Source of the DNA: an uncultured Gammaproteobacteria bacterium
Lineage (GTDB): Bacteria > Patescibacteriota > Microgenomatia > UBA12405
Reading direction: 5' to 3'
Assembly (NCBI GenBank): GCA_964549165.1
Contig: CAZJUH010000002.1
Coordinates: 1,896-65,895 of the forward strand
Length of the DNA stretch: 64,000 bases
The number at the start of each line of letters is the position of its first letter. Position 1 is the stretch's first letter. This document shows, in pieces, positions 14,417-58,640 of the stretch. The translations under genes were made by a program, and so were the position numbers. The notes beneath the pieces are model-generated. The model saw only the letters and a program-made list of their open reading frames with translations, searched no databases and was not told where the DNA came from.

Positions 14417-14418
14417 TT

Positions 14419-14988: not shown

Positions 14989-14997
14989 ATCTCCCCC

Positions 14998-15026
14998 TTG
15001 CTCTACATATAAATTAAGTATATAAT
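14998..15026 (+). promoter_or_regulatory. Sigma70-like promoter TTGCTC-17-TATAAT upstream of rpoB, with a 5' UTR of about 95 nt
   Basis: Perfect -10 at 15021-15026. Confidence 0.45.
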
Positions 15027-15122
15027 TCTCCACATTTGGCGAGCGGTTGGTACATAACTCGCTTGTCCGCGCAATTGCAAAGCTATTGGCGGATCGCTTC
15101 TCTTATATTTTTAAACTTAACG

Positions 15123-18100
15123 ATGCCTTCCGCAAAAAGAACTAATTGGGGTAAAAAATATCCTCAAATTCCTGCTTTAGATTTATTAGCTGTTCAAAAA
15201 GAATCCTGGGAAAAATTTCTCAAAACCGATCTCGAAGAAACCGTCCGTGCCATTTCTCCTATCTCCGATTACACTGGTAACAACTGGCTTTTAGAACTGG
15301 GTGAACTTTTTTACGATAAACTGACCTTAACTCCAGAAATTTCCCGTCTTAAGGGTTTAAATTATACTGTTCCCGTCTATACCAAGGCTAAACTTACCAA
15401 TAAAAGAACTGGTCTCGTCCGTGAAGAAGATGTTTTTCTTCTAAATCTTCCTACCATGACCCCCGAAGCTACCTTTATTATTAATGGTATCGAAAGGGGA
15501 GTTATCAATCAATTAGTTCGCTCTCCCGGAGTGTATTTCACCAGTGAAATCGATCCTGCCACTGGCAAAACTCTCTGCAATGCGGAGATTCGCCCAGTTC
15601 GTGGTTCTTGGCTCGAATTTTTCATCGGCAAAAAAGATGTTATTTTTGCCCGTATTGACCGTAAAAAGAAAGTTCCTGCGACCATTATTCTCAGAGCCGC
15701 CGGGGCCTTAACCGACAAACAATTAGTTGGTGAATTCGGAGATTATATCAATGGTACTATTACCGCTGACCCCACCAAAACTCAAGAAGAAGCCTATCTC
15801 GAATTTTATCGCAAGCTTCGTCCCGGTGAACCAGTTGTTCTTGAAAACGCTCAAAAATTTTTCAACGACCGCTTTTTTGATCTTCGAACTTACGAGCTCG
15901 GTCAAGTCGGCCGCCACAAAATCAATAAAAAGTTCTCCTTTAATTTCTCTGACGAAAATAAAGAAAATTGGGTTATCAAAAAAGAAGATTTAATCGCTAC
16001 TATCCGTCATTTAATTAAACTTCAAAAAGGTGAAGCGACTCATTTTGATGACATCGATTCTCTCGCCAATCGTCGTCTTCGCCGCTGTGGTGAAATCGTG
16101 GCTCAGGTCGCTCTTCGTCCTGCTATGGCCCGTTTTGAAAGAATGGTCAAAGAGAGAATGTCTCTACTTTCCACCAAAGAAAAACCGACTCCATCTCAAA
16201 TGATCAATCCTCAGCCCCTTATTTCTTCTCTCAATACCTTTTTTAGAAGCAATCAGCTTTCAGCTATTCTAGACCAGACCAATCCTCTGGCTGAGCTTGA
16301 TTTACTTCGACGAGTCACCGTAGTTGGTGTCGGCGGTTTAACCCGCGAAAGAGCGGCTTTTTCTATCCGCGACGTTCATTCTTCTCAGTATGGCCGCATT
16401 TGTGCCGTTCGTTCTCCTGAAGGTCCAAATATTGGTCTTGTTACTTACCTCGCTCTTTATGCCAAGGTCAATAAATATGGTTTTATTGAAGCTCCTTTCC
16501 GAAAAATTGTCAAAGTCGGTAAAAATTATACCTTTTCCGATGATGTAATTTATATGGATGCTGACGATGAATACGATCATCAGATTACTCATCTTGGCAT
16601 TAAAATAGAAGACAATGTTATTAAACAAAATTGGGTTCCGGTTCGTTTTCAAGGTGAATTTTCCGAAGGTCCCATCGATCAAGTCAAATTCATTGATATG
16701 GTACCAAACGAAATTGTCGGTGCCTCTGCTTCTTTGATTCCTTTTATTGACCATGACGATGCCACCCGGGCTCTAATGGGCTCTCACATGCAGACTCAGG
16801 CTGTCCCTTTGGTTCAGCCCGAAGCTCCCATTGTAGGTACTGGTATGGAAGCTGACGTTGCTTCTGCCATGAGTCGCTGTGTCTTGTCAAAAAACAGTGG
16901 TACTGTTACTTATGTTGACGCTGACAAAGTCATTGTTGACGATATTACCTATCCTATAACAAAATTTGAAAGAACTTCACCTTATGGTACTTGTTACAAT
17001 CAACAGGTTCTCGTTAACCTTGGCGATAAGGTCAAAAAGGGCGATGTCTTAATTGATGGTCCAGCTACCAGTCAAGGAGAACTTTCTATTGGTCGGAATT
17101 TACTCGTCGCTTACGCTTCTGTTGACGGTTTGGGTTACGAAGATTCCTTTTTAATTTCTGATCGTTTAGTTAAAGAGGATGTTCTCACCAATATTCAAAT
17201 CTTCGAATACAAAGCCGATGTGGTTGAAACTAAACTTGGCACTGAAGAATTAACTAAAGATATTCCGAATGTATCTGAAGCAGAACTGGCTAAATTAACC
17301 GAAGATGGCATTGTCATGATTGGCGCCACTGTTGGTCCAAACGATATTCTTGTTGGCAAAGTCGAACCTCGAGGTGAAAAAGAATTAACTGCTGAAGAAA
17401 GGCTATTAAGAGCTATTTTTGGTGAAAAAGCCCGAGAAGTCAAAGACACTTCTCTTCGGGTTCCCAATGGTGAGGGTGGAGTCGTCATCAAAATTGAAAC
17501 TTTAGGTAAAGAAGATGGTGATGAACTTGATCCTGGTGTCAATAAAGTTGTCAAAGTTTACGTCGCTCAGCTTCGCCGAATTCAAGAAGGTGATAAAATC
17601 GCTGGTCGTCATGGAAACAAGGGTGTTATTTGCCGAATTATGCCTGAATATGATATGCCCCACCTTGCTGAAGGAACCCCAGTTGATTTGGTTATGTCAC
17701 CTCTTTCAGTTATTGCCCGTATGAATCTTGGTCAAATCCTCGAAGTTATTTTAGCAGCTGCCGGCCAAAAATTAAACAAAAAATATGCCGTACCTGTTTT
17801 CGAAAAATATAGTGAAGCTCAAATTGGTAAAGAACTTACCGAGGCTGGTCTTGCTGTCACCGGAAAAACTAAATTATTTGATGGTCGCACCGGCGATGCC
17901 TTCGATCAAGATGTGGTTATTGGTGTTGGTTATATTCTAAAACTCGTCCATATGGTTGATGACAAGGTTCATGCTCGTTCTACTGGTCCCTATTCTCTCG
18001 TTACTCAGCAGCCTCTTGGTGGAAAAGCCAGAATGGGTGGTCAACGTCTCGGGGAAATGGAAGTTTGGGCTCTTGAGGCTCATCAAGCGGCTCATATTTT

Positions 18101-18329
18101 ACAGGAAATGCTGACTATCAAATCCGATGATATCGAAGGTCGAACGCATGCCTTTCAAGCTATTATTAAAGGTCAAGCTATTCCTGAGCCAGCCATTCCT
18201 GAGTCATTTAAGGTATTAACCAAAGAACTCGCTGGATTAGCACTTGATATTTCTCCTGTCGGAATGAAACCCGTCGCTGAAGAAGAAAAAGATGATTCAA
18301 AAGTTGAAGATTTAAAGGAGGACAACTAA
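15123..18329 (+). CDS. rpoB: DNA-directed RNA polymerase beta subunit
   Basis: Conserved RpoB blocks throughout. Start chosen at MPSAKRTNWGKK rather than the upstream in-frame Met. Confidence 0.9.
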   Translation: MPSAKRTNWGKKYPQIPALDLLAVQKESWEKFLKTDLEETVRAISPISDYTGNNWLLELGELFYDKLTLTPEISRLKGLNYTVPVYTKAKLTNKRTGLVREEDVFLLNLPTMTPEATFIINGIERGVINQLVRSPGVYFTSEIDPATGKTLCNAEIRPVRGSWLEFFIGKKDVIFARIDRKKKVPATIILRAAGALTDKQLVGEFGDYINGTITADPTKTQEEAYLEFYRKLRPGEPVVLENAQKFFNDRFFDLRTYELGQVGRHKINKKFSFNFSDENKENWVIKKEDLIATIRHLIKLQKGEATHFDDIDSLANRRLRRCGEIVAQVALRPAMARFERMVKERMSLLSTKEKPTPSQMINPQPLISSLNTFFRSNQLSAILDQTNPLAELDLLRRVTVVGVGGLTRERAAFSIRDVHSSQYGRICAVRSPEGPNIGLVTYLALYAKVNKYGFIEAPFRKIVKVGKNYTFSDDVIYMDADDEYDHQITHLGIKIEDNVIKQNWVPVRFQGEFSEGPIDQVKFIDMVPNEIVGASASLIPFIDHDDATRALMGSHMQTQAVPLVQPEAPIVGTGMEADVASAMSRCVLSKNSGTVTYVDADKVIVDDITYPITKFERTSPYGTCYNQQVLVNLGDKVKKGDVLIDGPATSQGELSIGRNLLVAYASVDGLGYEDSFLISDRLVKEDVLTNIQIFEYKADVVETKLGTEELTKDIPNVSEAELAKLTEDGIVMIGATVGPNDILVGKVEPRGEKELTAEERLLRAIFGEKAREVKDTSLRVPNGEGGVVIKIETLGKEDGDELDPGVNKVVKVYVAQLRRIQEGDKIAGRHGNKGVICRIMPEYDMPHLAEGTPVDLVMSPLSVIARMNLGQILEVILAAAGQKLNKKYAVPVFEKYSEAQIGKELTEAGLAVTGKTKLFDGRTGDAFDQDVVIGVGYILKLVHMVDDKVHARSTGPYSLVTQQPLGGKARMGGQRLGEMEVWALEAHQAAHILQEMLTIKSDDIEGRTHAFQAIIKGQAIPEPAIPESFKVLTKELAGLALDISPVGMKPVAEEEKDDSKVEDLKEDN

Positions 18330-21300
18330 TGTTTAAATTTAAAAATATGCTCGATTTTACTGGTATCGAGATTAAACTCGCTTCCCCAGAAGAGATTCTC
18401 TCCTGGTCAAGTGGTGAAGTTTTAAAACCGGAAACCATAAACTATCGTTCTTGGCGTCCTGAAAAAGATGGTCTTTTTTGTGAAAAAATCTTTGGACCCT
18501 CCCGTGATTACGAATGTTATTGTGGCAAATACAAAAAAATCCGATTTAAGGGTGTTATTTGCGATAAATGCGGAGTTGAAGTCACTACTAGCAAGGTTCG
18601 TCGTGAACGTATGGGTCACATTGCCCTAGCAGCTCCTATTGCTCATTTATGGTACCTTCGAAATACCCCCTCACCTTTAAGTGTGATTCTCGATGTTCCC
18701 CAAAAAGAGCTTGAAGCTGTCGTTTATTTTACAAAATACTTAGTTACTGCCATTGACGCCGATAAAAAGAAAGAAGCTTTAGTAAATCTGGAAATAAATT
18801 CTGAAAAACGCCAAAGTCAAATCGATGTTGACTCAAAAGAGTCAATTGAAAAACTCAAAGCTCAAACTGCCAAAGAGAAAAAAGATCTTGACAATAAAAT
18901 TAAAAATAAAGATCAGCTTTTAATTGCCAAAGAAGAGCGTGAGGTAAGGCTGAAGCAGGATGTTCAAAAAATTGAAAATAAAGCTACCAGCGAGAAAAAC
19001 CGCATCGAATCTTTAATCAAATTTCTTGAAGATAAGATCAAAAGCATGGAAGTTCTCTCTGTCCTTACTGACGAAGAAGAATTTTACTTAGCTCAGTTTA
19101 AAGCCGATATTTTTTATCAGGCCAAAATGGGGGCCGAGGCTTTACTTGAAGTCTTAAAAAATCTTGATTTACCTGAAACTGTAAAAAATCTTAAAAAAGA
19201 ACTAGCCAAAACCAGCAGCAAACTTAAAAAGAAAAAGATCATGTACAAAATCCGAATTTTAAATGGCATGATTGAAAATTCTATTAGTCCCGCCTGGACC
19301 ATCTTACAATATATCCCGGTTATTCCACCAGATCTTCGGCCTATGGTTCAGCTTACCGGTGGCCGCTTTGCTACTTCTGATTTAAATGATTTATATCGCC
19401 GTCTCATTAATCGTAATAATCGTCTTAAGAAATTAATCAAACTTGGCGCTCCTGAAATCATTCTTCGAAATGAAAAAAGAATGCTCCAAGAATCAGTTGA
19501 TATTCTCATTGATGCTCAAAAAGCCTCAAAGAATAAACGAAAAAGTAGCAAGCGTTTACCTCGTTCCCTTTCAGATCTACTTCGGGGTAAAAAAGGTCGT
19601 TTCCGACGTAATTTACTCGGGAAAAGAGTCGACTATTCTGGTCGTTCTGTCATTGTGGTTGGTCCCGAACTAAAATTAAATCAAGTCGGTCTTCCCAAGG
19701 AAATTGCTCTCGAAATGTATCGACCCTTTGTTCTCCGAGAGCTAATGGACAGTGGTCTGGCTGCCAATATCAAATCTGCCAAAAATTTAATTGATCACCG
19801 TATCAATGAGGTTTATGATATTTTGGAAAAAGTTACCAAAAATACTTACGTTCTCTTAAACCGGGCCCCCACTCTTCACAAACTTTCAATTCAGGCCTTT
19901 AAACCGGTCTTAACTGACGGTCTGGCTATTCGTCTTCACCCTTGTGTCTGTAAGGGTTTCAACGCCGACTTTGACGGAGACCAAATGGGGGTTCATTTAC
20001 CTCTATCCGCCGCCGCTCAAAGAGAAGCTAAGCACTTAATGTTGCCTTCGAGAAATCTTCTCAAACCTTCTGACGGGGCTCCAGTTTCTATTCCTTCTCA
20101 GGAAATGGCCGTCGGCTGTTATTACATCACCTCTGTCCGTTCCGAGGATATTTCCAAAGAAACTCAGTCTGATTTTAAAGACTTATCAATTATGGGAGAC
20201 AAGGATGAATTAATTTTAGCCTATCAATCAGGAAAAATTGGCTTAAGAGAATTAGTGGCTGTCAGAATCGAAGGTAAACTAATTAAGACTACTTATGGTC
20301 GAGTTTGGTTTAACTCTGTCTTGCCAAAAGAATTTGAGTTTTTAAATCTGCCTATGGCGGGAGCTAAAGCTTTAAATGACCTAATCGTTAAGTCTTTAGA
20401 AATTTCTAGTCGTTTAAAAACTGTCAAATTAATCGATTCCTTAAAAGATATCGGTTTTGCTGGTTTTACTCTCTCGGGACTTTCTCTCTCTATGCTTGAT
20501 ATGGGCTATCTTCCCGAAAAAAAATCAATTATTGCCGCGGCTGACAAGAGAGTCGTTGAAATTGAAAACAATTATAAAATGGGTCTAATTAGCAATGAAG
20601 AGAAAAAACGTCTCTCTCAAAGTGTCTGGATGGAAATTACCGAAAGTATTGCTGAAAAGACCTGGGAAACTTTAGACAGCGATTCTCCAATTCGCATTGT
20701 TTCCGCCGCTGGTATCAAGCGGGCCAGTAAAGATCAAATCAAACAGCTTTCTGGTATGAGAGGTCTGATGGTTGATCCTACGGGAAAAATCGTTCAACTA
20801 CCTACTAAAAGCAACTTTCGTGAAGGTCTTTCTGTGTTTGAATACATTACCGGTACTCGGGGCACTCGCAAGGGTCTGGCTGACACCGCTCTGCGTACTG
20901 CCGATGCTGGTTACTTAACTCGTCGTCTCGTTGATACCTCTCATGTCGCCATTACCCGCGAAAATGACTGTGGTACAACTCGTTTTTGGACTATTGATCG
21001 TAATGAAAAAGGTCGGGAAAAATTCTTTGGTCGTCGTCTTCTTGGTCGGGTTCTCGGTAGTGATGTCATTGATCCCAAAAACAAAAAAATTATTGCCAAA
21101 AAAGGTGATTTAGTCGACAATCATCTGCAAAGCATAATTGAGACCAGCGAAGTCAAAACCGTTGATGTTCGTTCTCCGCTAACTTGTAAATCAAAAATTG
21201 GCCTTTGTCGTCAATGTTACGGCTGGGATTTATCCAGTCGCCAGCTCGTTGGCTTTGGTGTTCCCGTTGGGGTCATCGCTGCCCAGTCTGTCGGTGAACC

Positions 21301-22069
21301 GGGTACCCAGTTAACTCTCCGAACTAAGCACACGGGTGGTGTTCTCGGAGTTGACGTGACTCAAGGTTTACCCCGTATTCAGGAATTATTCGAGGTCAGG
21401 ACTCCAAAATTACCCTCTCCTCTGGCTGAAATAGACGGCAAGGTAAAAATTAAAGAAAATATCGATGGCTATGAAATAAAACTCAGTGGTAAAGACAAAA
21501 ATAATGCCGCCAAAACCGTCAATTATTTACTTCCCAGCAATGTCACCCTATTAGTTGGTGATGGTGATTTGGTTGGCCAGGGAACTCAGCTTTGTTCTGG
21601 ACCGATTGATGTCAGAGAGATTCTCGAAGTATCGGGTCTTGAAGCTGCTCAGCGCTATCTGATAAATTCCATTCAAGGGGTTTATGAATCTCAAGGTATT
21701 GGTATTCACGATAAACACATTGAAGTAATTGTCAGGGAAATGAGCGATAAACTAAAAATTGAAGATCCAGGTGATACCAATTTCCTTTATGGTCAGGTGG
21801 TAACTAGGCCTGTTTATGAAGCTGAAAATGATAAAGCCAAAGAAAACGTCAAAGACGGCAAAGCTTCAAAAGGACACAAAGTTCTTTTGGGTTTAATTCA
21901 ATCGTCTTTGACCACAGGTTCATGGCTTTCTGCCGCTTCTTTCCAGCAAACTACCGGAGTCTTAACCGAGGCTTCGCTGCTGGCCGAGGTTGATAACTTG
22001 ATAGGTCTAAAAGAAAATGTTATTATCGGACGTCTTATTCCTGTCGGAAAAAGCCAGGAAATTAAATAA
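18329..22069 (+). CDS. rpoC: DNA-directed RNA polymerase beta' subunit
   Basis: Zn-finger CxxC, NADFDGD catalytic motif, and conserved C-terminal blocks. Confidence 0.95.
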
Positions 22070-22071
22070 AT

Positions 22072-22494
22072 ATGCCTACCTATAACCAACTAATTAGTAA
22101 ATGTCGCAAAGTTCGTCGTCTTAAATTAAGAACCGGAGCTTTACGGGATAATTTTAATAGTATCAAAAATAGTAGTGTTGTTACCTACAATCCTCAAAAA
22201 AAAGGAGTGGTAACGGTCGTTAAAACCATGACTCCCAAAAAGCCTCATTCAGCTTTGCGAAAAGTGGCCAAGGTTCGTCTCAGTAATCGGGCCACGGTAA
22301 CGGCTTATATTCCTGGAATTGGGCACAATTTAGCCGAACACGGTATTATTTCTATTCGCGGTGGTCGGGTCCGAGATCTTCCCGGTGTCCGCTACCATAT
22401 TATTCGCGGTAAATATGACGCCGGTGCTGTTGCCGGTCGTCAGCAATCCCGCAGTAAATATGGCGCGAAAAAATCCACTAAAGCTTCCGCTTAA
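22072..22494 (+). CDS. rpsL: 30S ribosomal protein S12
   Basis: Canonical S12 sequence ([11 protein letters not shown]...). Confidence 0.95.
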
Positions 22495-22520
22495 TATTAT
22501 ATGTTAAATTTATTAAAAAT

Positions 22521-22553
22521 ATTTAGAATTTAGGCTTTAGGCTTTAGATTTTA
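22521..22553. repeat. Heptamer array TTTAGAATTTAGGCTTTAGGCTTTAGATTTT between rpsL and rpsG
   Basis: Seen directly. Nearly identical to 50971-51003. Confidence 0.5.
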
Positions 22554-22569
22554 ATTTTTATTTTATTTT

Positions 22570-23052
22570 ATGTCACGCAAAGGTCAAAGCAAAATTAGAG
22601 AAGTTCTTCCTGATACCAAATATAACAGTATTGTGGTTACCAAATTAATTAATCGGGTGATGTATGCCGGCAATAAAAATGCAGCTCAAAAACAAGTTTA
22701 CGAAGCTTTAGATATTTTTAAAAAAGACAGTAAAAGCGAAGATATTATTACTACTCTAGAGCAGGCTCTTGACAATCTTAAACCCAAAGTTGAGGTTCGA
22801 CCTCGCCGTATCGGCGGAGCCGTTTACCAGGTACCCACTCCTGTTCGAGGCACTCGTCAATATTCTCTGGCCATCAGATGGCTTGTCACCTCTGCTCGTA
22901 AACGCCCAAATAAACAATTTCACACTTTTGCTGGGAAATTAGCCGCCGAGCTTTTGGCGACTCTAAACAACGAAGGAGCTTCGATAATGAAGCGTCAGGA
23001 AATCGAGAGAATGGCTGATGCCAACAAGGCCTTTGCCCACCTTAGATGGTAA
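22570..23052 (+). CDS. rpsG: 30S ribosomal protein S7
   Basis: Canonical S7. Confidence 0.95.
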   Translation: MSRKGQSKIREVLPDTKYNSIVVTKLINRVMYAGNKNAAQKQVYEALDIFKKDSKSEDIITTLEQALDNLKPKVEVRPRRIGGAVYQVPTPVRGTRQYSLAIRWLVTSARKRPNKQFHTFAGKLAAELLATLNNEGASIMKRQEIERMADANKAFAHLRW

Positions 23053-23069
23053 TATGTTAAGATATTTTA

Positions 23070-24404
23070 ATGTCGTTATTCTCGAAACCTAAAGTTGTTC
23101 TCTGGCCTAAAAAAGACAGCCTTGAAATCTATTTTGATAAAACTGACAACAATACTCTTTCTTTTGAAACTGATCTTTGGCAGGCACAGTCTGAGGACAG
23201 TCTCCAAAATTTAGCCAACTTTTTTCAAAAAAATAATATTTCGGAGGTTTACGTTATCTTGGACGATACTTACGTTATTATCAAAACCTTTATTTATGAT
23301 TCAGTAATTGCAACTCTTGATCCAAATGAGGTAGTTACTTTAGCCAAAGATTCGGTCGATTTCAAAATCTCACCCGAAGCCGTCACCTTTGATCTAGAGC
23401 CTGACAATGAGCGTACTTTAGTTCGTACCCGAATTTTTAATCAAGAAAAATTTCTCCTCCTAACCACCAATCTTGAAAAACTAGGCCTAAAAGTTATAGA
23501 TTTCGAAACTCTTTCTTCCGCCATTGCCAAGCTTTACGCTCATTTTGACAATGGTCAACATTTCTTTTTTTATCCTATAAATACGCACGATTATGTGGCT
23601 ATTCTTTCAAGCAAAGGTCACGTCTATTTGACTTCGATTATTAAAAAAACTTTGCCCGAGCTTAAAAAATTACTTAATTATTCCCAGGCTTTTTTCAATA
23701 ACCCGAAGCCTTCTCAGTATTTTCCCGGTGAAAATTACAATGAAAGTGAAATTTGCCAGCGCTTTCAAAAAGCGTCAAATTTACCTCTGCCAGTTCTTTC
23801 CTTTTTTGTTGGCACGGCCAAACCAAATTCTGCTATAATAAAACCAACAGAACCTCTTATTGATTCACCTCAAAGTCAAATTTCTATGGAAAATAATAAA
23901 AAAAATATTTTACCGATTATTGCTGTTTTTTTAATTACAATTTTAATCACTGCCGCCATTGTTTGGTTTGTTCTTAATCAAAATAATAAAAATACTGAAA
24001 TTAACACTCCTGCCGGTGATTCACTTCCTGAGACCAGTGAAATAAGCGCCACAGTTGTTAGCCAGGCTCCCACTCCAACTTTAGCTGAAATTAGTAAAAC
24101 CATAAAAATTCAGGTTTTAAATGCCACTGATATTAATGGTCAAGCTGCCACTATCAAGACGGAGTTAACCAGTCTTGGTTTTACTAGCGTTACCACCGGC
24201 AATAGGGCTAAAAAAGAAACTACCAATCAGATTCAAGCCAAAAAAGAAATTGCGACTGATTATTTTTTACAGAAAATTCCTCAATTTTCTAAGAGTACTG
24301 TTACCGAATTATCAGCCACTTCCAGTTACGACCTTATTTTTATTATTGGTACAGATCTTAAAGCGACCAGCACTCCCTCGGCTTCTCCTAGTATTAATCC
24401 TTAA
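23070..24404 (+). CDS. Hypothetical membrane protein with a C-terminal LytR_C-like domain
   Basis: A TM segment around residue 280, and a C-terminal IKIQVLNATDINGQA...DLIFIIGTDLK resembling the LytR/CpsA/Psr C-terminal domain. Confidence 0.4.
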   Translation: MSLFSKPKVVLWPKKDSLEIYFDKTDNNTLSFETDLWQAQSEDSLQNLANFFQKNNISEVYVILDDTYVIIKTFIYDSVIATLDPNEVVTLAKDSVDFKISPEAVTFDLEPDNERTLVRTRIFNQEKFLLLTTNLEKLGLKVIDFETLSSAIAKLYAHFDNGQHFFFYPINTHDYVAILSSKGHVYLTSIIKKTLPELKKLLNYSQAFFNNPKPSQYFPGENYNESEICQRFQKASNLPLPVLSFFVGTAKPNSAIIKPTEPLIDSPQSQISMENNKKNILPIIAVFLITILITAAIVWFVLNQNNKNTEINTPAGDSLPETSEISATVVSQAPTPTLAEISKTIKIQVLNATDINGQAATIKTELTSLGFTSVTTGNRAKKETTNQIQAKKEIATDYFLQKIPQFSKSTVTELSATSSYDLIFIIGTDLKATSTPSASPSINP

Positions 24405-24409
24405 ATACC

Positions 24410-25432
24410 ATGAAAATTTTAGTCACCGGTGGTTGTGGCTTTATCGGCAGCAATTTTATCCACTATTGGCTTTCTCGACACCCAGATGATTTTATTGTGA
24501 ATCTTGACAAGCTTACTTACGCCGCTAATCCCGCCTCTCTAAAAGATTTAGACGGTAGTTTTCACTATCAATTTATTCAGGGTGATATCTGTGATGAAAA
24601 TTTAGTCGACACAATTTTGTCAGACAAAATTGAGTTAATTGTTCATTTTGCCGCCGAATCTCATGTTGATCGGTCGATTGATGATCCTCTCCTTTTTGTC
24701 AAAACTAATGTCCTTGGAACCTATACTCTATTAAACTACGCCAAAAAACACGGTAATATTCGTTTTCATCACGTTTCCACTGACGAAGTCTTTGGCTCTA
24801 TTCCTTTTGGCTCATCGGCTCAGTTTTCAGAGCAGACTCCCTATGATCCTTCTTCTCCTTACTCCGCTTCAAAAGCAGCTTCAGATCATTTTGTCCGCTC
24901 TTTCCACAAAACCTTTGATTTGCCTATCACTATCACTAATTGCTCAAATAATTACGGTCCTTTTATGAATCCGGAAAAAATGATTCCTCGGATGATTACA
25001 AATATTATTGATAATAAAAAAATTCCTGTTTATGGCCGAGGAGAAAATTTTCGCGACTGGCTTTATGTGACTGATCACTGCTCCGCTATCGAGTCTGTCA
25101 TTGCTCGGGGGAAAATTGGTGACACTTATTGTATTGGCGGTCTTAAAGAAACTTCAACCAATATTGATCTTGTTAAAAAAGTTCTCAAGTTAATGGGTGG
25201 GGATGAGTCTCTGATTGAATTTGTGGCTGACCGGCCTGCCCACGATAATTATGCCGTTTCTTGGGAAAGAATACATCATGAGCTTGGCTGGGAACCCAAA
25301 GAGACTCTTGATTCTGGCCTTATCAAAATGATTGCCTGGTATAAGGAAAACGAATCATGGTGGCGTAGTGCCAAAACCGAAGCCGAAGCCTTTTATCAAA
25401 AGCTTAACGACTATAAAAATTTAAACAAATAA
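24410..25432 (+). CDS. rfbB: dTDP-glucose 4,6-dehydratase
   Basis: GGCGFIGS Rossmann motif, YSASKAASD catalytic motif. Confidence 0.85.
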   Translation: MKILVTGGCGFIGSNFIHYWLSRHPDDFIVNLDKLTYAANPASLKDLDGSFHYQFIQGDICDENLVDTILSDKIELIVHFAAESHVDRSIDDPLLFVKTNVLGTYTLLNYAKKHGNIRFHHVSTDEVFGSIPFGSSAQFSEQTPYDPSSPYSASKAASDHFVRSFHKTFDLPITITNCSNNYGPFMNPEKMIPRMITNIIDNKKIPVYGRGENFRDWLYVTDHCSAIESVIARGKIGDTYCIGGLKETSTNIDLVKKVLKLMGGDESLIEFVADRPAHDNYAVSWERIHHELGWEPKETLDSGLIKMIAWYKENESWWRSAKTEAEAFYQKLNDYKNLNK

Positions 25433-26004
25433 TGCCCTACGAACAAATAAGCGAAACAGATTTAAAGGGTGTTTTTAAAATTCAGCCAAAAGTTTTTATT
25501 GACGCGAGGGGTTATTATTCACCCACCTTAGTCGTCTCAGAGTTTGAAAAAGCCACTAGTGGTTCTTTTAACTTAATTCAAGTTGCCTCTTCATTCAATT
25601 CCGAAAAAGGAATTTTTCGTGGACTACATTATCAAGCTCCTCCCTATACGCAGGGTAAATTAGTTATGGTCACGGAGGGCTCAGTTTTAGATATTGCTCT
25701 CGATATTCGAAAAAATTCTCCCACTTTTGGCCAGCACATCACTGAGGTTTTAACTGCCAAAAAACAAAATCAACTTTGGGTTTCGCCAGGATTTGCCCAT
25801 GGTTATCTGGCTCTCGAAAATAACACCCGCTTCACTTATTTTGTCACCGGTGGGGTTTACTCACCTCAAAACGAAAAGGGAGTTAATGTTTTTGATTCTT
25901 CGCTCAAGATTGATTTACCTCTCAGTTGCGGTGAAATTAAGCTCAGTGACAAAGACCAGCTTTTACCAAATTTAAGCGATATTTTAAAAGAAAACTTATT
26001 ATGA
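25432..26004 (+). CDS. rfbC: dTDP-4-dehydrorhamnose 3,5-epimerase
   Basis: Cupin-fold RmlC motifs. Confidence 0.8.
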   Translation: MPYEQISETDLKGVFKIQPKVFIDARGYYSPTLVVSEFEKATSGSFNLIQVASSFNSEKGIFRGLHYQAPPYTQGKLVMVTEGSVLDIALDIRKNSPTFGQHITEVLTAKKQNQLWVSPGFAHGYLALENNTRFTYFVTGGVYSPQNEKGVNVFDSSLKIDLPLSCGEIKLSDKDQLLPNLSDILKENLL

Positions 26005-26903
26005 AAAAACAAATTTTAGGGACTGGCCTATCCGGCTTAGTAGGTTCGAGAGTAGTTGAGCTCAATCCAGATTTTAACTTTGCCGATGCTTCTCTTGAGA
26101 CTGGCGTCAATATTCTTGATAAAAAGGAATTAGAGCAGTTTTTTAAAGACAATCCCGAGTCTAATATTCTTATTCATTTCGCCGCTTTTACTGATACCAA
26201 TGCCGCCTGGAATCAAAAAGGGGATAAAAACGGTCTCTGCTATCAACTAAATGTCAACGGTACCCAAAACATAGTCGATTTATGTAAAGAGTATCATGAA
26301 TATTTAATCCATATTTCCACTGATTTTGTTTTTGATGGCACCAAAAAAACTGAATATACTGAAAAAGATTTACCTCATCCCCTCGATTGGTATGGGGAAA
26401 CTAAATATCTGGCCGAAAAATTAATTTTAGACTCCGGTCTCCCCGCTTCTATTGTTCGAATTGCCTTTCCTTACCGATCTTCATCAACCACCAAAGTCGA
26501 TTTTGTCAGAAAAATAATTAATAAACTTCAGAATAATGAGACGGTGACCATGTTTACCGACCAGAAAACAACTCCCACCTTTATCGATGACATTGGTCTC
26601 GGTTTGCGCTTTTTTATTGATAAAAAACCAAATGGTATTTACCATCTTGTCGGACCCACTTCCCAATCACCCTACGATACGGCCAAAAATATTGCTCAAG
26701 TTTTTGATTTAAACGCTGATTTAATTAAAAGCTCATCTCTTGAAGATTATCTGCGTACTCCTGGTGCCCGTCCTTATGCCAAAAACTTAAGTTTATCAAG
26801 TCAAAAATTTTCAACCGAATCCGGTTTTTTCCCTAGAAATCCTATTTCCGGTTTTGAAGAATTAAAACGGCAGCTTTCTCTCCCTCCCTCACCGCGTAGT
26901 TAA
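26001..26903 (+). CDS. rfbD: dTDP-4-dehydrorhamnose reductase
   Basis: RmlD-like short-chain reductase. Coupled to rfbC by a 4-nt overlap. Confidence 0.7.
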   Translation: MKKQILGTGLSGLVGSRVVELNPDFNFADASLETGVNILDKKELEQFFKDNPESNILIHFAAFTDTNAAWNQKGDKNGLCYQLNVNGTQNIVDLCKEYHEYLIHISTDFVFDGTKKTEYTEKDLPHPLDWYGETKYLAEKLILDSGLPASIVRIAFPYRSSSTTKVDFVRKIINKLQNNETVTMFTDQKTTPTFIDDIGLGLRFFIDKKPNGIYHLVGPTSQSPYDTAKNIAQVFDLNADLIKSSSLEDYLRTPGARPYAKNLSLSSQKFSTESGFFPRNPISGFEELKRQLSLPPSPRS

Positions 26904-28080
26904 CCCCTCTATCTTCCGGATAAATCATCGCAAAATTCGCCTGAATTACTTTATTGTTTGATTGAAGATTGGAGATTGAAGATTGATAATTAGTGGTCAC
27001 AATGTGCTGCGCGTATTTAAATTTAAAAACAAATTTTTCTTCAATTTCTTTTTCCTTAAACTCAGGAAAAATTTTTTTTAGATATCCAAAAAAATCTTTT
27101 TCAATCAAAGCATCTTTACAGGTAAAATATTTGTGATTTTGGGGTAAATATGTTCCCATGTAATAAATATTTTTATCGCCATAATTTTCTGTTCCAACTA
27201 AATTAGTGTGTTGAATAAAAGCCAGAAAAGGGGATTTGGTGTCGTTAATGTTGTGCCAATAAAATTTGCTTAAATTTTGTTTTGAAGAAAAAACTACCGT
27301 TACCGCTCCCAAATAACCAATATTTTCTATCGGCGCCGTACTAATAATTTTGTCATATTCTTTTTCTAATTTTCCAAAATCTAAAATCTCATTTCTCATC
27401 TCTATTCTTCCCCCCATCTTTTTGATTCTCTTTTCTAGTTCATCAATAATCAGTTGAAATCCACCATTCATATATCCCAAATATTCCCTTGCCACGCCAA
27501 AGCCTTTGGCGTCGGCGGGTTTTCCTTTCGAATTCCCCCTGGTATGAATTCTAGCCCACATCCAGGCCATTGAAATATCTTTATACCTATCACTAAATTT
27601 ACCTTTGAGCAGTGGCTCCCAGACAACTCGATAAGCTCTGTCTCCACACCATTTTTTCATCCATTTATAGGCTAAAACATTTTCAAATTTTTTCCAATTA
27701 TTTTTTTTTTCGAGATATATTTTGACCAGACCCAGTCGCAGTTTATCAATTAAACTGAGTGGCTTAAATTTCAATAAATCCATGGCTCCGGCAAAAGGAT
27801 ATACTTTCCCCTCGTAGTAAAGGGCCGTCTTACTCTCATACCATTTCAATTTATTTTCCAAGCCTAATTCTTTTATTAAGGCGATTATTTCTTTATCGCC
27901 TTTAAAAATATGATGATAGGCTTTTTCCAAATTAGTCCCCTCTATTTTAAATCCGCCTAAAAGTCCACCCAAATCCTCGCTCTTTTCAAATATAGTTACT
28001 TGATATTTTTTTTGTAATAGCCGATAAGCGGCTACAAGTCCAGTAATTCCTCCGCCCACCACTAATATTTTCGACTTCAT
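26842..28080 (-). CDS. FAD-dependent oxidoreductase (amine-oxidase / UDP-galactopyranose-mutase-like fold)
   Basis: N-terminal GGGITGL dinucleotide-binding motif. Its 3' end overlaps the rfbD 3' end by about 62 nt. Confidence 0.5.
   Translation of the reverse strand: MKSKILVVGGGITGLVAAYRLLQKKYQVTIFEKSEDLGGLLGGFKIEGTNLEKAYHHIFKGDKEIIALIKELGLENKLKWYESKTALYYEGKVYPFAGAMDLLKFKPLSLIDKLRLGLVKIYLEKKNNWKKFENVLAYKWMKKWCGDRAYRVVWEPLLKGKFSDRYKDISMAWMWARIHTRGNSKGKPADAKGFGVAREYLGYMNGGFQLIIDELEKRIKKMGGRIEMRNEILDFGKLEKEYDKIISTAPIENIGYLGAVTVVFSSKQNLSKFYWHNINDTKSPFLAFIQHTNLVGTENYGDKNIYYMGTYLPQNHKYFTCKDALIEKDFFGYLKKIFPEFKEKEIEEKFVFKFKYAQHIVTTNYQSSISNLQSNNKVIQANFAMIYPEDRGVNYAVREGEKAAVLILQNRK
26955..26987. repeat. 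GATTGAA-type heptamer array inserted in-frame in the FAD-oxidoreductase gene. It encodes NYQSSISNLQSNN.
   Basis: Seen directly. Paralogous to 12305-12338. Confidence 0.55.
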
Positions 28081-28126
28081 TTATGCTATGATACTATGTT
28101 TAAAATCAATTAATAAAACTAAAATT

Positions 28127-30238
28127 ATGGCAGAAGCTATTCAAGTCAGCAAAAACAGAGTCGTCCCGATGGATAAAGTTAGAAACATCGGCATTATCGC
28201 TCATATTGATGGTGGTAAAACCACCACTACTGAGCGCTTGCTTTTTTATACTGGCAATATCCACAAAATCGGTTCTGTTGATGAGGGAACTACTACCACC
28301 GATTCTATGATTCAGGAACGGGAGAGAGGGATTACTATTCAATCCGCCTGTGTCACCACCTATTGGAAAAATTATCGTATCAATATTATCGATACTCCGG
28401 GGCACGTTGACTTTACTGCTGAGGTAGAAAGATCTCTTCGCGTTCTCGACGGAGCCATTATGATTTTTGACGGTAATGCTGGGGTTCAGGCGCAAAGCGA
28501 AACTGTTTGGCGTCAAGCTGATAAATATCAAGTTCCTCGCCTCGCCTATGTCAATAAAATGGACAAGATTGGCGCTTCTTTTCAGGCCACCCTTGAGTCT
28601 ATCAAGCAAAAACTTCATGCTCCGATTGTGTCAGTGGTTTATCCCATCGGCGAAGAGCACGATTTTATGGGGGTCATTGATCTTATGGAGATGAAAATGA
28701 TTGTCTATGATAAAGATGAAGAAGGTATGGAATTTACCGTCAAAGATGTTACTCCTGAATATTTAGAGGCAGCCACGGCAGCCCGGGCGGCTATGGTTGA
28801 AAAAATTGCCAGTGAAGATGAGACTTTAATGGAAAAATTCCTAAGTGATCAGGAAATCTCTGTCGCTGAATTAAAAGCGGTTTTGCGCCACGCGACTATC
28901 AATAGAAAATTATTCCCAGTTTATTGTGGTGCTTCTTGGCGAAACAAGGGAATTCATCCCATTTTGGATGCCATTGTTGATTATCTTCCTTCACCTCTTG
29001 ATATTCCTCCCACCGAGGGTTTTGATATTGTAACGGGCGAGGTCATCAGTCGAAAAGCGGAAAATCAAGAACCTTTTTCCGGTCTTTTATTCAAAGTTCA
29101 ATCTGATCCTCATGTGGGTACTCTTTCTTATGTCCGGATTTATTCTGGGACCGTCAAAACCGGTCAAGAAGTATACAATCCCAATAAGCAAAAAAACGAA
29201 AGAATTGGCCGTTTACTGCTTATGCATGCTGATAAACGCGAAGGAATAGAAGAAGGTTATGCTGGCGAAATTATTGCTTGTATTGGTTTAAAAGAATCAA
29301 CTACCGGTGACACTCTTTGTGACAAGCTTCACCCCATTTCTCTGTCTCCCATTCAATTTTCCGAACCGGTAATTTCCCTCTCAATTGAACCGGAAACTGC
29401 CGATGATCAGGAAAAAATGGGAGCTGCCCTAAATCGTCTATCTTCAGAAGATCCGACTTTTAAAGTCTCATATAACCACGAAACTGGTCAAACTATTATC
29501 GCCGGTATGGGTGAACTCTACCTTGAAATTATCGTTGACCGTCTTAAAAGAGAATTTGGAGTTAATGTTAAAACCGGAGCCCCTCAGGTTGCTTATCGGG
29601 AAACTATCTCTGCTAACGCTGAAGGTGAGGGTAAATATATTCATCAGTCTGGAGGTCATGGTCAATACGGCCACTGTAAAATCCGCATTGAACCCAAAAA
29701 TAGAGGCGAAGGCGTGGAATTTGTCAACGCCATCAAAGGTGGAGTAATTCCCGCCAATTTTATCCCGGCCATTGAAAAAGGAGTTCGTGAGACTCTAACC
29801 AAGGGGATAATCGCTGGTTATCCTTGTACCGATATCAAAATTTCTGTTTATGACGGTTCTTATCACGATGTTGATTCATCTGAAGCCGCTTTTAAATTAG
29901 CCGGATCTTACGCCATTAAAGACGCTTTTGTTCAAGCAAACCCTTTAATTCTTGAACCTATCATGAAGTTTGAAGTAGCGACTCCTTCAGAATTTTTAGG
30001 CACCGTTATCGGTGACCTTTCTTCGAGGCGTGGTCAAGTTGGCGGTACTTCTGAAGCTTTTGGCTTTACTACCGTTACTGCCACTGTTCCACTTGAAGCT
30101 GTTCGCGGCTATGCTACTGTTATCCGCTCCTTGACTCAGGGTCGAGGCTCTTTTTACATGGAACCCAGTCACTATGACCCCGTTCCCCGTGATATTCAAG
30201 AAAAATTGACCATCAAAACCACCGACAAAAAAGATTAA
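28127..30238 (+). CDS. fusA: Elongation factor G
   Basis: GTPase motifs AHIDGGKTT, DTPGHVDF. Start chosen at MAEAIQV. Confidence 0.9.
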   Translation: MAEAIQVSKNRVVPMDKVRNIGIIAHIDGGKTTTTERLLFYTGNIHKIGSVDEGTTTTDSMIQERERGITIQSACVTTYWKNYRINIIDTPGHVDFTAEVERSLRVLDGAIMIFDGNAGVQAQSETVWRQADKYQVPRLAYVNKMDKIGASFQATLESIKQKLHAPIVSVVYPIGEEHDFMGVIDLMEMKMIVYDKDEEGMEFTVKDVTPEYLEAATAARAAMVEKIASEDETLMEKFLSDQEISVAELKAVLRHATINRKLFPVYCGASWRNKGIHPILDAIVDYLPSPLDIPPTEGFDIVTGEVISRKAENQEPFSGLLFKVQSDPHVGTLSYVRIYSGTVKTGQEVYNPNKQKNERIGRLLLMHADKREGIEEGYAGEIIACIGLKESTTGDTLCDKLHPISLSPIQFSEPVISLSIEPETADDQEKMGAALNRLSSEDPTFKVSYNHETGQTIIAGMGELYLEIIVDRLKREFGVNVKTGAPQVAYRETISANAEGEGKYIHQSGGHGQYGHCKIRIEPKNRGEGVEFVNAIKGGVIPANFIPAIEKGVRETLTKGIIAGYPCTDIKISVYDGSYHDVDSSEAAFKLAGSYAIKDAFVQANPLILEPIMKFEVATPSEFLGTVIGDLSSRRGQVGGTSEAFGFTTVTATVPLEAVRGYATVIRSLTQGRGSFYMEPSHYDPVPRDIQEKLTIKTTDKKD

Positions 30239-30335: not shown

Positions 30336-30364
30336 TTGCGAATCTGAGGCCTTACTGATACAAT
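30336..30364 (+). promoter_or_regulatory. Candidate internal promoter TTGCGA-17-TACAAT in the 200-nt fusA-tuf spacer
   Basis: Hexamers seen directly. Untested. Confidence 0.3.
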
Positions 30365-30440
30365 TCTAAAGCGTTTTTCGCTACAATTATATTGTTATTA
30401 ATTTTCCGCGGAAAGCGGATATTTTACAAAAAACAAACAT

Positions 30441-31613
30441 ATGGCAGACGTCTATAAAAGAAACAAACCGCACGTTAATGTCGGTACTATTGGTCATGTT
30501 GACCATGGCAAAACTACTTTAACTGCAGCTATTACAAAAACCCAAGGAAACGCAAAATCATACGCTGATATTGCCAAGGGAGGCACCGTTCGTGATGCCA
30601 ACAAAATCGTTACTATTGCTATTTCTCATGTTGAATATGAGAGCGAAAAAAGACACTACGCTCATATCGACTGTCCAGGCCACGCTGACTATGTCAAAAA
30701 CATGATTACCGGTGCCGCTCAAATGGATGGCGCTATTTTGGTAGTTTCTGCTCCTGATGGCCCAATGCCTCAAACCCGCGAGCACGTTTTACTTGCAAAG
30801 CAGGTAAATGTTCCCGCCCTCGTCGTCTTTTTAAACAAAGTCGATTTAGTTACCGATGCTGAATTTTTAGATTTAGTTGAAATGGAAATAAGGGATCTTT
30901 TAACCAAATATGGTTATCCAGGCAGCGAAATTCCTATCATCCGTGGTTCTGCTCTTAAAGCCTTAAATGGTGATGCTGAAGGCATTGAATCCATTAAAAA
31001 ATTAATGGAAGCTCTCGATACCTATATTCCTGAGCCTATTCGTGAACTTGACAAGCCATTTTTAATGCCGATTGAAGACGTCTTTTCGATCAAAGGTCGC
31101 GGTACTGTCGCTACCGGTAGAATCGAACGCGGTCTCGTCAAAATCAACGACGAAGTCGAAATTGTCGGTCTTCGAGACACCAAAAAAGTCGTGGTCACTG
31201 GAGTCGAAATGTTCCACAAACAACTTGAACAAGGTCAAGCTGGCGACAATGTTGGTTTGCTTCTTCGGGGCATCGAAAAAGACGATATTGAACGCGGTCA
31301 GGTTCTAGCCAAAATCGGCACTATTACTCCTCACACCGAATTCAAAGCTGAAGTGTTGTTGCTCAAAAAAGAAGAGGGTGGTCGTCATACTCCAATTTTT
31401 GCTGGTTATCGACCTCAAGTCTTTATTAGAACCACTGACGTCACCGGCGAAGTTATCCTCCCTGACGGTGTCGAAATGGTTATGCCAGGTGATAATGCCC
31501 ATGTTACCATTAAATTAATAAAAGCCGTTGCCATGGAATCGGGCTTCCGTTTCGCTATCCGCGAAGGTGGTCTAACTGTTGGTGCCGGTGCTATCACTGA
31601 AATTATTAAATAA
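30441..31613 (+). CDS. tuf: Elongation factor Tu
   Basis: Canonical EF-Tu. Confidence 0.95.
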
Positions 31614-50811: not shown

Positions 50812-50963
50812 GCCTCGGCAATTTTGCCCGTAATCTGAATTTCTTTAAATTTTTTAATACTCTTGATTGTTTTTCTTAAAGCTTTAAAGCGCGCCTCAAA
50901 ATTTATTACCTCAACATAAAATTCCGACACTACCAAAAGCTCTTTATTTTTATTTTTCATATT

Positions 50964-58629: not shown

Positions 58630-58640
58630 AGCATAGTATA

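Follow-up and report, generated by a model that had tools for sequence, protein, structure and literature searches.

In Candidatus Shapirobacteria, the lineage that hosts the DNA analysed here, the str string is split between rpsG and fusA by a cell-envelope module whose constant members are a LytR_C membrane protein and a reversed flavoenzyme. The split is very probably an ancient, lineage-defining rearrangement, with the module fixed in the ancestor of the clade and retained since. In the window (the whole stretch of 64,000 nucleotides) the genes concerned are arranged as follows.

15036-18329: rpoB (ORF listing and profile searches)
18329-22069: rpoC (ORF listing and profile searches)
22072-22494, forward strand: rpsL (S12), 5' part of the interrupted str string (ORF; Pfam Ribosom_S12_S23)
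22570-23052, forward strand: rpsG (S7), last translation gene ahead of the block (PF00177 Ribosomal_S7, 172.7 bits)
23070-24404, forward strand: LytR_C bitopic membrane protein, 444 amino acids (PF13399, profile search)
24410-25432, forward strand: rmlB, dTDP-glucose 4,6-dehydratase (TIGR01181)
25432-26004, forward strand: rmlC, dTDP-4-dehydrorhamnose 3,5-epimerase (TIGR01221)
26001-26903, forward strand: rmlD-like gene, putative dTDP-4-dehydrorhamnose reductase (PF04321)
26842-28080, reverse strand: FAD-dependent oxidoreductase (NCBIfam PRK07233)
28127-30238, forward strand: fusA (EF-G), 3' part of the interrupted str string (ORF, profile search and the start used by relatives)
30441-31613, forward strand: tuf (EF-Tu), with rpsJ and the S10 cluster directly 3' (ORF listing)

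The rpsG-fusA gap of 5,074 nt (23053-28126) thus holds five genes, of which one is reversed, and the two translation genes are not adjacent. The mechanical fusA ORF runs from 28088, the start common to relatives being 28127 (MAEAIQV). A preliminary description had reported a five-gene block breaking the str string at this point, and the ORF listing and profile searches confirm both the interruption and the gene identities, apart from its suggestion that the oxidoreductase is Glf-like. An assembly artefact is excluded, the gene order recurring in >25 independent assemblies.

Synteny was examined in one genome per GTDB species, scanned with S7, which gave 26 species-representative loci for Candidatus Shapirobacteria (S7 identity 61-96%), a lineage that NCBI ranks as phylum Shapironibacteriota. 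The block also turns up in several public records filed under Gammaproteobacteria, Methanoperedens or Pseudobdellovibrionaceae. The LytR_C gene lies downstream of rpsG in 25 of the 26 loci, and in the exception (L017) the contig stops 176 nt past rpsG. Wherever both rpsG and fusA are present (12 of 12 loci), the LytR_C gene and the reversed oxidoreductase lie between them, with a gap of 5.06-8.3 kb. The corresponding gap is 17-102 nt in nine outgroup loci (Woesebacteria, other Patescibacteria, Blastocatellia, Caldisericia, Glassbacteria and others), and the block was not found in the other Patescibacteria sampled. Sequence identity of the LytR_C protein and of the oxidoreductase declines in parallel with that of S7 and RpoC, as expected under vertical descent. 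The preliminary description had allowed for a recent insertion and had noted that an arrangement ancestral to the whole phylum would speak against it; such an arrangement is largely what the synteny comparison found across Candidatus Shapirobacteria. Clade-wide synteny refutes recent insertion of the block as a whole, and the block is an old and conserved trademark of the lineage. Since sister lineages within Microgenomates are thinly sampled (roughly five loci, S7 identity 52-57%), the node of insertion is only bracketed.

Transcription across the split

The LytR_C protein starts 17 nt past the rpsG stop, the subsequent spacings in the block are 5, -1 and -4 nt, and a scan for terminator-like sites found none from rpsG up to the 3' end of rmlD (to 26813), an arrangement compatible with read-through from rpsL-rpsG. 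We infer co-transcription in which the tightly packed unit rpoB-rpoC-rpsL-rpsG would continue at its 3' end into the LytR_C gene and rmlBCD; an envelope scaffold and a rhamnose precursor would then be made alongside the machinery of transcription and translation. This unit would be closed by the flavoenzyme gene, which is convergent and overlapping. Because an opposite-strand gene and envelope genes part rpsG from fusA, fusA-tuf would have to possess a promoter of its own, for which a candidate is found in the following spacer.

28081-28126: divergent spacer between the oxidoreductase gene and fusA, 46 nt, with an extended -10-like motif TGcTATGAT at 28084-28092, oriented for fusA

The opposite strand of the spacer carries a -10-like hexamer, TATCAT, about 7 nt ahead of the ATG of the oxidoreductase gene. 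A stretch of 29 nt, CATTTATGCTATGATACTATGTTTAAAAT, is identical in the window and in four relatives (L002, L011, L012 and L014) and differs by one base in a fifth (L013); the spacer around it diverges, and S7 of the six loci differs by up to 25%. This conserved motif with its extended -10-like element probably restarts fusA-tuf transcription. A single rpsG-rfb-fusA transcript, which the preliminary description had suggested testing, is made less likely by the reversed flavoenzyme gene together with the promoter-like motif, both of which speak for a separate fusA transcript. Taken as a whole, the promoter scan performed no better than on shuffled sequence (24 sites versus 22 expected), and the TGNTATNATA pattern was not enriched in the window (4 versus 2.1 expected).

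It is conceivable, if somewhat unlikely, that the split has no regulatory meaning and is a neutral rearrangement that became fixed because the genomes are small and seldom recombine, the inserted genes being expressed from their own promoters independently of rpsL-rpsG. In six relatives (L007, L010, L015, L016, L018 and L021), rpsG and the LytR_C gene are separated by 400-3400 nt and even by opposite-strand genes, so co-transcription with rpsG is not obligatory in the clade, and rpsG-fusA adjacency has also been lost in a Treponema (L034) and a Planctomycetota (L036) locus. A purely neutral origin nevertheless fits less well with the maintenance of the position across the clade although genes are often gained or lost inside the block, with the short spacers (17-83 nt, devoid of terminator-like hairpins) in the subclade of the window, and with the strong conservation of the fusA-proximal motif.

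The constant core: LytR_C protein and flavoenzyme

The LytR_C protein and the flavoenzyme are the constant core of the block, and the rml genes are its variable cargo. Three parts are distinguished in the LytR_C protein.

23091-23819, forward strand: cytoplasmic N-terminal domain, aa 8-250, predicted actin-like (PilM/FtsA/GspL-like) fold (AF2 and Foldseek)
23910-23987, forward strand: transmembrane helix, aa 281-306 (AF2 helix; conserved hydrophobic stretch ILPIIAVF...)
24099-24356, forward strand: extracytoplasmic LytR_C domain, aa 344-429 (PF13399)

The accessory LytR_C domain (38.5 bits versus a cut-off of 22.2) is the sole Pfam match at E <= 0.01; no match was obtained with the PilM, T2SSL, PilN or FtsA profiles, and the catalytic LytR_cpsA_psr domain (PF03816) is absent from the Pfam search. 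Homologues number 344, and every named one belongs to Shapirobacteria or Patescibacteria; for the N-terminal domain, 31 representative clusters only were retrieved among 1.84e9 proteins. A basic NNKKN stretch ahead of the helix places the N-terminus inside the cell. In the AF2 model the pLDDT of the N-terminal domain is mostly about 85-96 (72-83 around aa 190-220), and Foldseek matches it to PilM, FtsA and GspL at probability 1.0, with E = 2.5e-11 for PilM (5eox) and a TM-score of about 0.5, relative to the target, for the GspL/EpsL cytoplasmic domain. The phosphate-binding DxG and GxG motifs are missing from this domain, invariant W12 and P13 standing in the place of DxG. Because the modelled fold is actin-like and lacks nucleotide-binding motifs, the cytoplasmic domain is probably a GspL-style pseudo-ATPase scaffold.

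An improbable alternative makes the LytR_C protein a type IV pilus or secretion component, that is a true PilM-PilN or GspL orthologue with rml genes as incidental neighbours. PilM and GspL are indeed its top structural matches, it has the same architecture as GspL, with an actin-like domain, a membrane helix and a small external domain of alpha/beta type, and type IV pili abound in CPR bacteria. However, besides the negative profile searches, no locus has pilus genes in the block, the family is confined by sequence to one clade whereas pilus genes are widespread, and external LytR_C domains are known from wall-ligase contexts (PMC11832169). A bolder extension of the scaffold reading, to which little probability is assigned, takes the protein as a transmembrane coupler between a cytoplasmic partner (candidates would be the divisome, an ATPase of the pilus type or some polymerising machinery) and the external assembly of the wall glycopolymer that contains rhamnose. 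If so, its fixed place directly behind rpsG would tie its dosage to ribosome dosage, growth rate and envelope synthesis would be hard-wired to each other in a bacterium that is ultra-small and episymbiotic, and the phytoene-desaturase-like flavoenzyme would modify the lipid carrier.

The flavoenzyme matches PRK07233 with 407.5 bits (curated cut-off 252), and also Pfam Amino_oxidase and NAD_binding_8. The PRK07233 family is described as NAD(P)/FAD-dependent oxidoreductase, its function being unannotated. In relatives the gene keeps its position and orientation, always on the strand opposite to fusA. By sequence, its best PDB match is PF1083 (3nrn; E = 1e-7), a protein that is itself uncharacterised. 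A structure model of moderate confidence (pLDDT 68.7) retrieved 5mog with E = 1.9e-19 and a TM-score of 0.70, and the 50 structural matches listed comprise phytoene desaturase, protoporphyrinogen oxidase, monoamine oxidase and other related flavoproteins. The enzyme, as modelled, resembles phytoene desaturase and protoporphyrinogen oxidase, and its substrate is probably lipophilic. The proposal of a Glf-like enzyme (UDP-galactopyranose mutase) does not hold: the GLF profile (PF03275) gave no match, and no UGM occurs among the 50 structural matches listed. Three local features concern this gene.

26842-26903: 62 nt shared by the 3' ends of the convergent rmlD and oxidoreductase genes (ORF listing)
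26960-26985: tandem heptamer GATTGAA/GATTGGA, about 3.7 units, in the 3' region of the oxidoreductase gene
About 27491-27520, reverse strand: in-frame GC-rich palindromic insertion, 27 nt, with CGCCAAAGGCTTTGGCG core, encoding roughly KPADAKGFG

The overlap, already pointed out in the preliminary description with the reservation that a mis-called stop might explain it, is real and not the product of such a stop, since the C-terminus ...AAVLILQNRK matches that of a homologue (P0123) and relatives also overlap (L002 and L011-L015; 12, 18, 18, 50, 50 and 56 nt). A GATTGAA insertion had likewise been claimed: the heptamer repeat is present in the gene, but the aligned oxidoreductase has the same length as its homologues at this place, which indicates sequence replacement and not a length insertion. 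The repeat lies where the diverged segment around rmlD, described below, ends on its right. The palindrome is a true length insertion of the window copy and occurs in none of 14 aligned homologues.

The rml cassette

RmlB (TIGR01181, 454 bits versus a cut-off of 365) carries GxxGxxG and YxxxK motifs in its translation, and RmlC scores 158.9 bits with TIGR01221 (cut-off 155.75) and 179 bits with PF00908. The RmlD-like protein also has GxxGxxG and YxxxK and scores 166 bits with PF04321 and 157 bits with TIGR01214, under the equivalog cut-off of 224, and its exact product remains putative. RmlB and RmlC of the RmlABCD pathway are therefore identified in the window and RmlA is not, in agreement with the earlier claim: tblastn with an in-clade RmlA gave a best E of 0.9, and no NTP_transferase appeared in Pfam scans of 20 other ORFs of the window.

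Across relatives the cassette is a mosaic that comprises rmlABCD, BCD, CD, B or none of these genes. Two deeper-branching lineages among those sampled (L022 and L024) have rmlABCD, with an NTP_transferase gene between those for LytR_C and RmlB (PF00483, 201 bits in L022; the L024 copy was recognised by its 73% tblastn identity to that of L022). The order in L040 is rpsG, LytR_C, rmlB, oxidoreductase, fusA; rmlB is missing from L018, and L021 has zero rml genes, the oxidoreductase coming next after LytR_C. On a 564-kb contig (Ga0209340_1000003) the block lacks rmlA, and an rmlA-like gene about 70 kb away adjoins a GT2-GtrA gene near an LCP ligase; a true LCP gene is thus found in the genome of a relative, outside the block.

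Alleles vary as well. RmlC occurs in the clade as two types (35-40% mutual identity; 'type 2' in the window) at odds with S7 relationships. The window rmlD has 51% amino acid identity with that of the closest relative, L002, and DNA identity between the two is 51-65% over 26094-26972 and 80-94% on the flanks. By these comparisons rmlD is a replaced allele, in a cassette that undergoes allele replacement. Such replacement is usual for surface-glycan loci.

That the five genes entered the str operon of this organism recently by horizontal transfer is extremely improbable: the G+C content of the block (0.34-0.39) lies somewhat below that of flanking rpoC and fusA (0.40-0.44), rmlC and rmlD alleles disagree with species relationships and an integrase adjoins the block in L021, but reduced G+C is usual for less conserved genes beside highly expressed ones, exchange is seen in the rml cassette only, identities of the two core proteins track S7 and RpoC, and every Shapirobacteria locus sampled, even at 61% S7 identity, agrees in position, order and orientation.

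Significance and comparison with known systems

The split is a clean and, overall, moderately interesting genomic synapomorphy for Shapirobacteria, useful for binning and taxonomic checks. It indicates that the str string can stay split across a whole candidate phylum, with a putative compensating promoter ahead of fusA. The cell-wall biology of CPR bacteria is largely unknown, and the GspL-like actin-fold/LytR_C membrane protein and the PRK07233 flavoenzyme are clade-constant candidates for a role in their envelope biogenesis. No concept is overturned, operon erosion and the exchange of surface-glycan cassettes being already well known.

The canonical str operon of E. coli and most bacteria agrees with the window in its four genes, in their order and common strand, and in their place within the rpoBC-str-S10-spc array; in all sampled Shapirobacteria, by contrast, rpsG and fusA are parted by 5-8 kb of envelope genes, one of them reversed. 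Gram-positive rmlBCD/rfbBCD rhamnose wall clusters share the tight packing, RmlB and RmlC above equivalog cut-offs and an RmlD-like SDR, whereas here glycosyltransferases, a flippase or rmlA do not adjoin, the genes sit in the translation superoperon and their content varies by relative. The flavoenzyme shares with the phytoene desaturase/protoporphyrinogen oxidase/monoamine oxidase superfamily an N-terminal GxGxxG FAD-binding domain and, as modelled, the fold (TM 0.6-0.7), but its identity to any solved structure is only 14-18%.

GspL and PilM-PilN resemble the LytR_C protein in having an actin-like domain without a functional ATP site (Foldseek E about 1e-8 to 1e-11 to the Shapirobacteria domain), one membrane helix and a small external alpha/beta domain. 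The Shapirobacteria family differs in its lack of profile similarity, its LytR_C external domain, its restriction to one clade and its lack of a secretion or pilus gene context. VirR (Rv0431) and Cei (Rv2700) of Mycobacterium tuberculosis, LytR_C-only proteins that act in wall integrity and bind LCP ligases via the LytR_C domain (PMC11832169), likewise have a membrane-anchored external LytR_C domain without an LCP domain. The likeness to Cei extends to a partial NCBIfam match that spans the membrane helix and the first part of LytR_C (39.5 bits, far under the cut-off of 150), and the Shapirobacteria protein is set apart from both by its extra 250-aa cytoplasmic domain with a predicted actin fold.

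Gene order between rpsG and fusA

Rather than following rpsG directly, fusA is separated from it by five genes, as seen in the layout from rpoB to tuf.

Genes from rpoB to tuf (coordinates in the window, strand, product, basis of assignment)
15036-18329, +, rpoB (ORF listing)
18329-22069, +, rpoC (ORF listing)
22072-22494, +, rpsL (ORF listing)
22570-23052, +, rpsG (ORF listing)
23070-24404, +, LytR_C-domain protein, 444 aa (PF13399 at aa 344-429, 38.5 bits)
24410-25432, +, RmlB, 340 aa (TIGR01181, 454 bits against a cut-off of 365)
25432-26004, +, RmlC, 190 aa (TIGR01221, 158.9 bits against a cut-off of 155.75)
26001-26903, +, RmlD-type reductase, 300 aa (PF04321, 166 bits)
26842-28080, -, PRK07233-family NAD(P)/FAD oxidoreductase, 412 aa (407 bits against a cut-off of 252)
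28088-30238, +, fusA (ORF listing; conserved start at 28127)
30441-31613, +, tuf (ORF listing), with the S10 cluster next

The preliminary description had placed this block inside the str string, and ORF listing and profile searches confirm both the block and its annotation, as well as the 62-nt convergent overlap of rmlD and the oxidoreductase gene (26842-26903). In the profile searches, the RmlD-type reductase scores 157 bits with TIGR01214, under its cut-off of 224, and the oxidoreductase also matches Pfam Amino_oxidase and NAD_binding_8. RmlA is indeed missing from the window, as tblastn with in-clade RmlA and Pfam scans of 20 further ORFs returned none. The exact LytR_C protein is also encoded on a Logan contig, where the genes stand in this same order; an assembly chimera is ruled out by an identical contig in the independent Logan assembly and by repetition of the order in >25 assemblies. 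The window has further envelope genes: a 682-aa protein without Pfam match (7528-9576) adjoins a sortase (9578-10312), MltG/YceG (10747-11805) lies 5′ of rpoB and UppP/BacA (50083-50811) lies 3′ of the ribosomal cluster; the 20 window ORFs scanned included neither a glycosyltransferase nor an LCP ligase.

A scan with the S7 protein, using one genome per GTDB species, gave 38 loci, and the 26 with S7 at least 61% identical, including obviously mislabelled bins, make up the Shapirobacteria set (NCBI rank: Candidatus Shapirobacteria, phylum Shapironibacteriota, within the Microgenomates/Patescibacteria group). By tblastn of the window proteins, the LytR_C gene follows rpsG in 25 of these 26 loci, the exception (L017) ending 176 nt past rpsG. 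Wherever both rpsG and fusA are present (12/12 loci), the LytR_C gene and the reverse-strand oxidoreductase gene lie in between, with a gap of 5.06-8.3 kb; the spacer is 17-102 nt in nine outgroup loci (a Woesebacteria, other Patescibacteria with S7 52-57% identical, and other phyla). Because of this clade-wide position, the block is ancestral to Shapirobacteria, and hence ancient. The recent insertion suspected earlier is contradicted by synteny across relatives, which also rules out recent horizontal transfer of the entire block. A broken str string is uncommon but not unique, since fusA does not follow rpsG in a Treponema (L034) or a Planctomycetota (L036) locus either. According to a published survey, EF-G I is usually, not always, encoded in the str operon (PMC3150367).

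No description of this arrangement was found in the searchable literature, relative to which the following are new: the arrangement as a synapomorphy of Shapirobacteria, its organisation as a core plus a cassette in which alleles are replaced, and the actin-fold/LytR_C architecture of the first block gene. Operon erosion and surface-glycan cassette exchange, the phenomena behind the arrangement, are already known.

Shapirobacteria/Patescibacteria-type rpoBC-str regions also occur in MAG records titled 'uncultured Gammaproteobacteria', 'Pseudomonadales', 'Candidatus Methanoperedens' and 'Pseudobdellovibrionaceae' (L004, L007, L009, L014, L020, L024, L025, L027, L029, L030 and L032), which are probably mislabelled or contaminated bins.

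The variable rml cassette

Relatives differ in the genes that lie between LytR_C and oxidoreductase.

Content of the cassette in the window and in homologous loci
rmlBCD, compact version of 5.06-5.25 kb: the window, its closest relative L002, and L011-L014
rmlB alone: L040, Rifle aquifer Shapirobacteria
rmlC and rmlD without rmlB: L018
no rml genes, an integrase adjoining the block: L021
rmlABCD: L022 and L024, deeper-branching

In L022, an NTP_transferase (201 bits) lies between the LytR_C gene and rmlB, and rmlA of L024 was identified through 73% tblastn identity to this copy. Additional block genes in other loci encode radical SAM, NUDIX, 2-hydroxyacid dehydrogenase, metallo-beta-lactamase-fold, YecM and HAD proteins. 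A block without rmlA need not mean a genome without it: the str block of the 564-kb contig Ga0209340_1000003 has no rmlA, yet an rmlA-like gene occurs ~70 kb off on that contig, next to a GT2-GtrA glycosyltransferase gene and close to that of a true LCP ligase. Two loci have broken block genes, namely rmlD in L014 (192 + 80 aa; 6487-7352 of that locus) and the oxidoreductase gene in L011 (two ORFs of 151 + 266 aa; 14332-15643), reflecting either lineage pseudogenisation or assembly frameshifts.

RmlC comes in two types, only 35-40% identical to each other, whose distribution conflicts with S7 and RpoC relationships. The window and L002 share 51% protein identity in RmlD, as against 96% in S7, 94% in RmlB and 86% in RmlC; correspondingly, DNA identity is 80-94% from rpoC to rmlC and again from 26973 on, and drops to 51-65% across 26094-26972. 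The replaced rmlD segment has its right edge exactly at a tandem heptamer repeat (26960-26985). Judged by these sequence comparisons, the rml genes are mosaic.

This heptamer, (TGAAGAT)n with ~3-5 units, is found inside three unrelated coding genes of the window.

Positions of (TGAAGAT)n
1904-1940, in the prolyl-tRNA synthetase gene
12307-12343, in the gene of a radical-SAM/UPF0004 enzyme
26960-26999, in the oxidoreductase gene

In the oxidoreductase, the region encodes QSSISNLQS; homologues are equally long but different there, with QSSISNLQS common to some and another repeat-like sequence (e.g. LRITNYEL) in others. Intergenic spacers contain heptamer-like repeats as well (TTTAGAT / TTTAGGC / TTTAGAA), at 2204-2252, 22504-22552 (the rpsL-rpsG spacer) and 50947-50995; in L002, one lies ahead of fusA.

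The window copy of the oxidoreductase gene also carries a 27-nt in-frame GC-rich palindromic insertion (~27491-27520, core CGCCAAAGGCTTTGGCG), unique to it in comparison with 14 aligned homologues. One homologue (P0150) has another insertion, PPEAGR, elsewhere in the protein. GC-rich palindromes (GCCAAAGGC...GCC core) occur within ORFs of the window or at their ends, with further copies at 5504-5536, 43244-43276, 45638-45670 and 51003-51035, a pattern reminiscent of the in-frame palindromic elements (RPEs) of Rickettsia.

Spacer motifs and predicted transcription

Successive spacers from rpoB to rmlD measure -1, 2, 75, 17, 5, -1 and -4 nt, and the plus strand has no predicted terminator-like hairpin from rpsG to 26813. 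Such a layout would fit envelope genes that extend the rpoBC-rpsLG unit at its 3′ end. Co-transcription with rpsG is not universal in the clade, since in several relatives the LytR_C gene is set apart from rpsG by a long spacer or by genes on the opposite strand. The oxidoreductase gene is convergent with the rpoB-rmlD unit and divergent from fusA, from which it is separated by 46 nt; a single transcript from rpsG to fusA is unlikely.

Within this 46-nt spacer, the 29-nt CATTTATGCTATGATACTATGTTTAAAAT is identical in the window, L002, L011, L012 and L014, and differs by one base in L013, while the remaining spacer diverges. It holds an extended -10-like element, TGcTATGAT (28084-28092), and on the opposite strand a TATCAT hexamer ~7 nt 5′ of the oxidoreductase ATG. 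A generic promoter scan was not above background, and for TGNTATNATA as a candidate promoter signature genome-wide the window shows no enrichment (4 matches versus 2.1 expected); the predicted promoter therefore rests on conservation, not enrichment. At gathering thresholds, Rfam models matched one tRNA only in the entire window, hence the block has no known riboswitch or r-protein leader.

Deeper lineages (L007, L008, L018, L022, L024 and L025) show a -10-like GTGTTATCATAAT followed by a GC-rich hairpin and a T-run before fusA. In the window, a comparable succession (TTGCGA-17-TACAAT, then GC-rich hairpin and T-run) is seen 5′ of tuf at 30336-30419, where the hairpin matches no Rfam family. 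Lying ~20-75 nt ahead of the fusA or tuf start codon, hairpin and T-run may represent a 5′-leader hairpin or attenuator. At 58629-58641, divergent genes for a pseudouridine synthase and a PD-(D/E)XK nuclease lie 11 nt apart (CAT-AGCATAGTATA-ATG), with -10-like sequences on both strands of the spacer, resembling the oxidoreductase/fusA spacer; this sequence suggests leaderless or near-leaderless transcripts.

The oxidoreductase and the LytR_C protein

By sequence, the oxidoreductase has only weak matches in the PDB, in the FAD-binding N-terminus, the best being the uncharacterised PF1083 (3nrn, E = 1e-7). Its AlphaFold2 model, of moderate confidence (pLDDT 68.7, pTM 0.69), is nearest to rice phytoene desaturase (5mog, E = 1.9e-19, TM 0.70), the other closest structures being protoporphyrinogen oxidases and monoamine oxidases. 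The Glf-like identity proposed at the outset is ruled out, the HMM search having found no GLF domain and the 50 structural matches listed including no UDP-galactopyranose mutase. Since phytoene desaturase and protoporphyrinogen oxidase act on lipophilic substrates, it is reasonable to guess, no more, that the substrate is lipid-linked.

The LytR_C protein has 344 database homologues, all of one length class and, where the source is named, from Shapirobacteria or Patescibacteria. In their alignment, an N-terminal region of 250 aa with strong conservation is followed by a hydrophobic helix, a linker rich in Pro and Thr, and the LytR_C domain. A complete HMMER pass with the N-domain over 1.84 billion cluster representatives retrieved 31 clusters only, most of them, including all full-length matches, of ~435-525 aa; the family is clade-restricted. 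It is not an LCP ligase, as it has no PF03816 domain.

The AlphaFold2 model of the N-domain (pLDDT ~85-96 mostly, 72-83 near aa 190-220) has an actin-like ATPase fold: Foldseek against the PDB retrieves PilM (5eox, E = 2.5e-11), FtsA, BT_3980 and the cytoplasmic domains of EpsL/GspL (TM-score ~0.5 relative to the target), and more weakly MreB and Ppx/GppA. In the alignment, invariant LWPK and FYP(L/I)N stand in place of the phosphate-binding DxG and GxG motifs, so that the N-domain is most likely a non-catalytic scaffold, like GspL. Profile-level similarity to GspL or PilM is absent, but the architecture is that of GspL or of a PilM-PilN fusion, actin-like inside, with a single helix through the membrane and a small external alpha/beta domain. 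A role as a wall-associated scaffold is proposed by analogy, because the LytR_C-only proteins VirR and Cei of M. tuberculosis uphold wall integrity and contact LCP ligases via LytR_C (PMC11832169).
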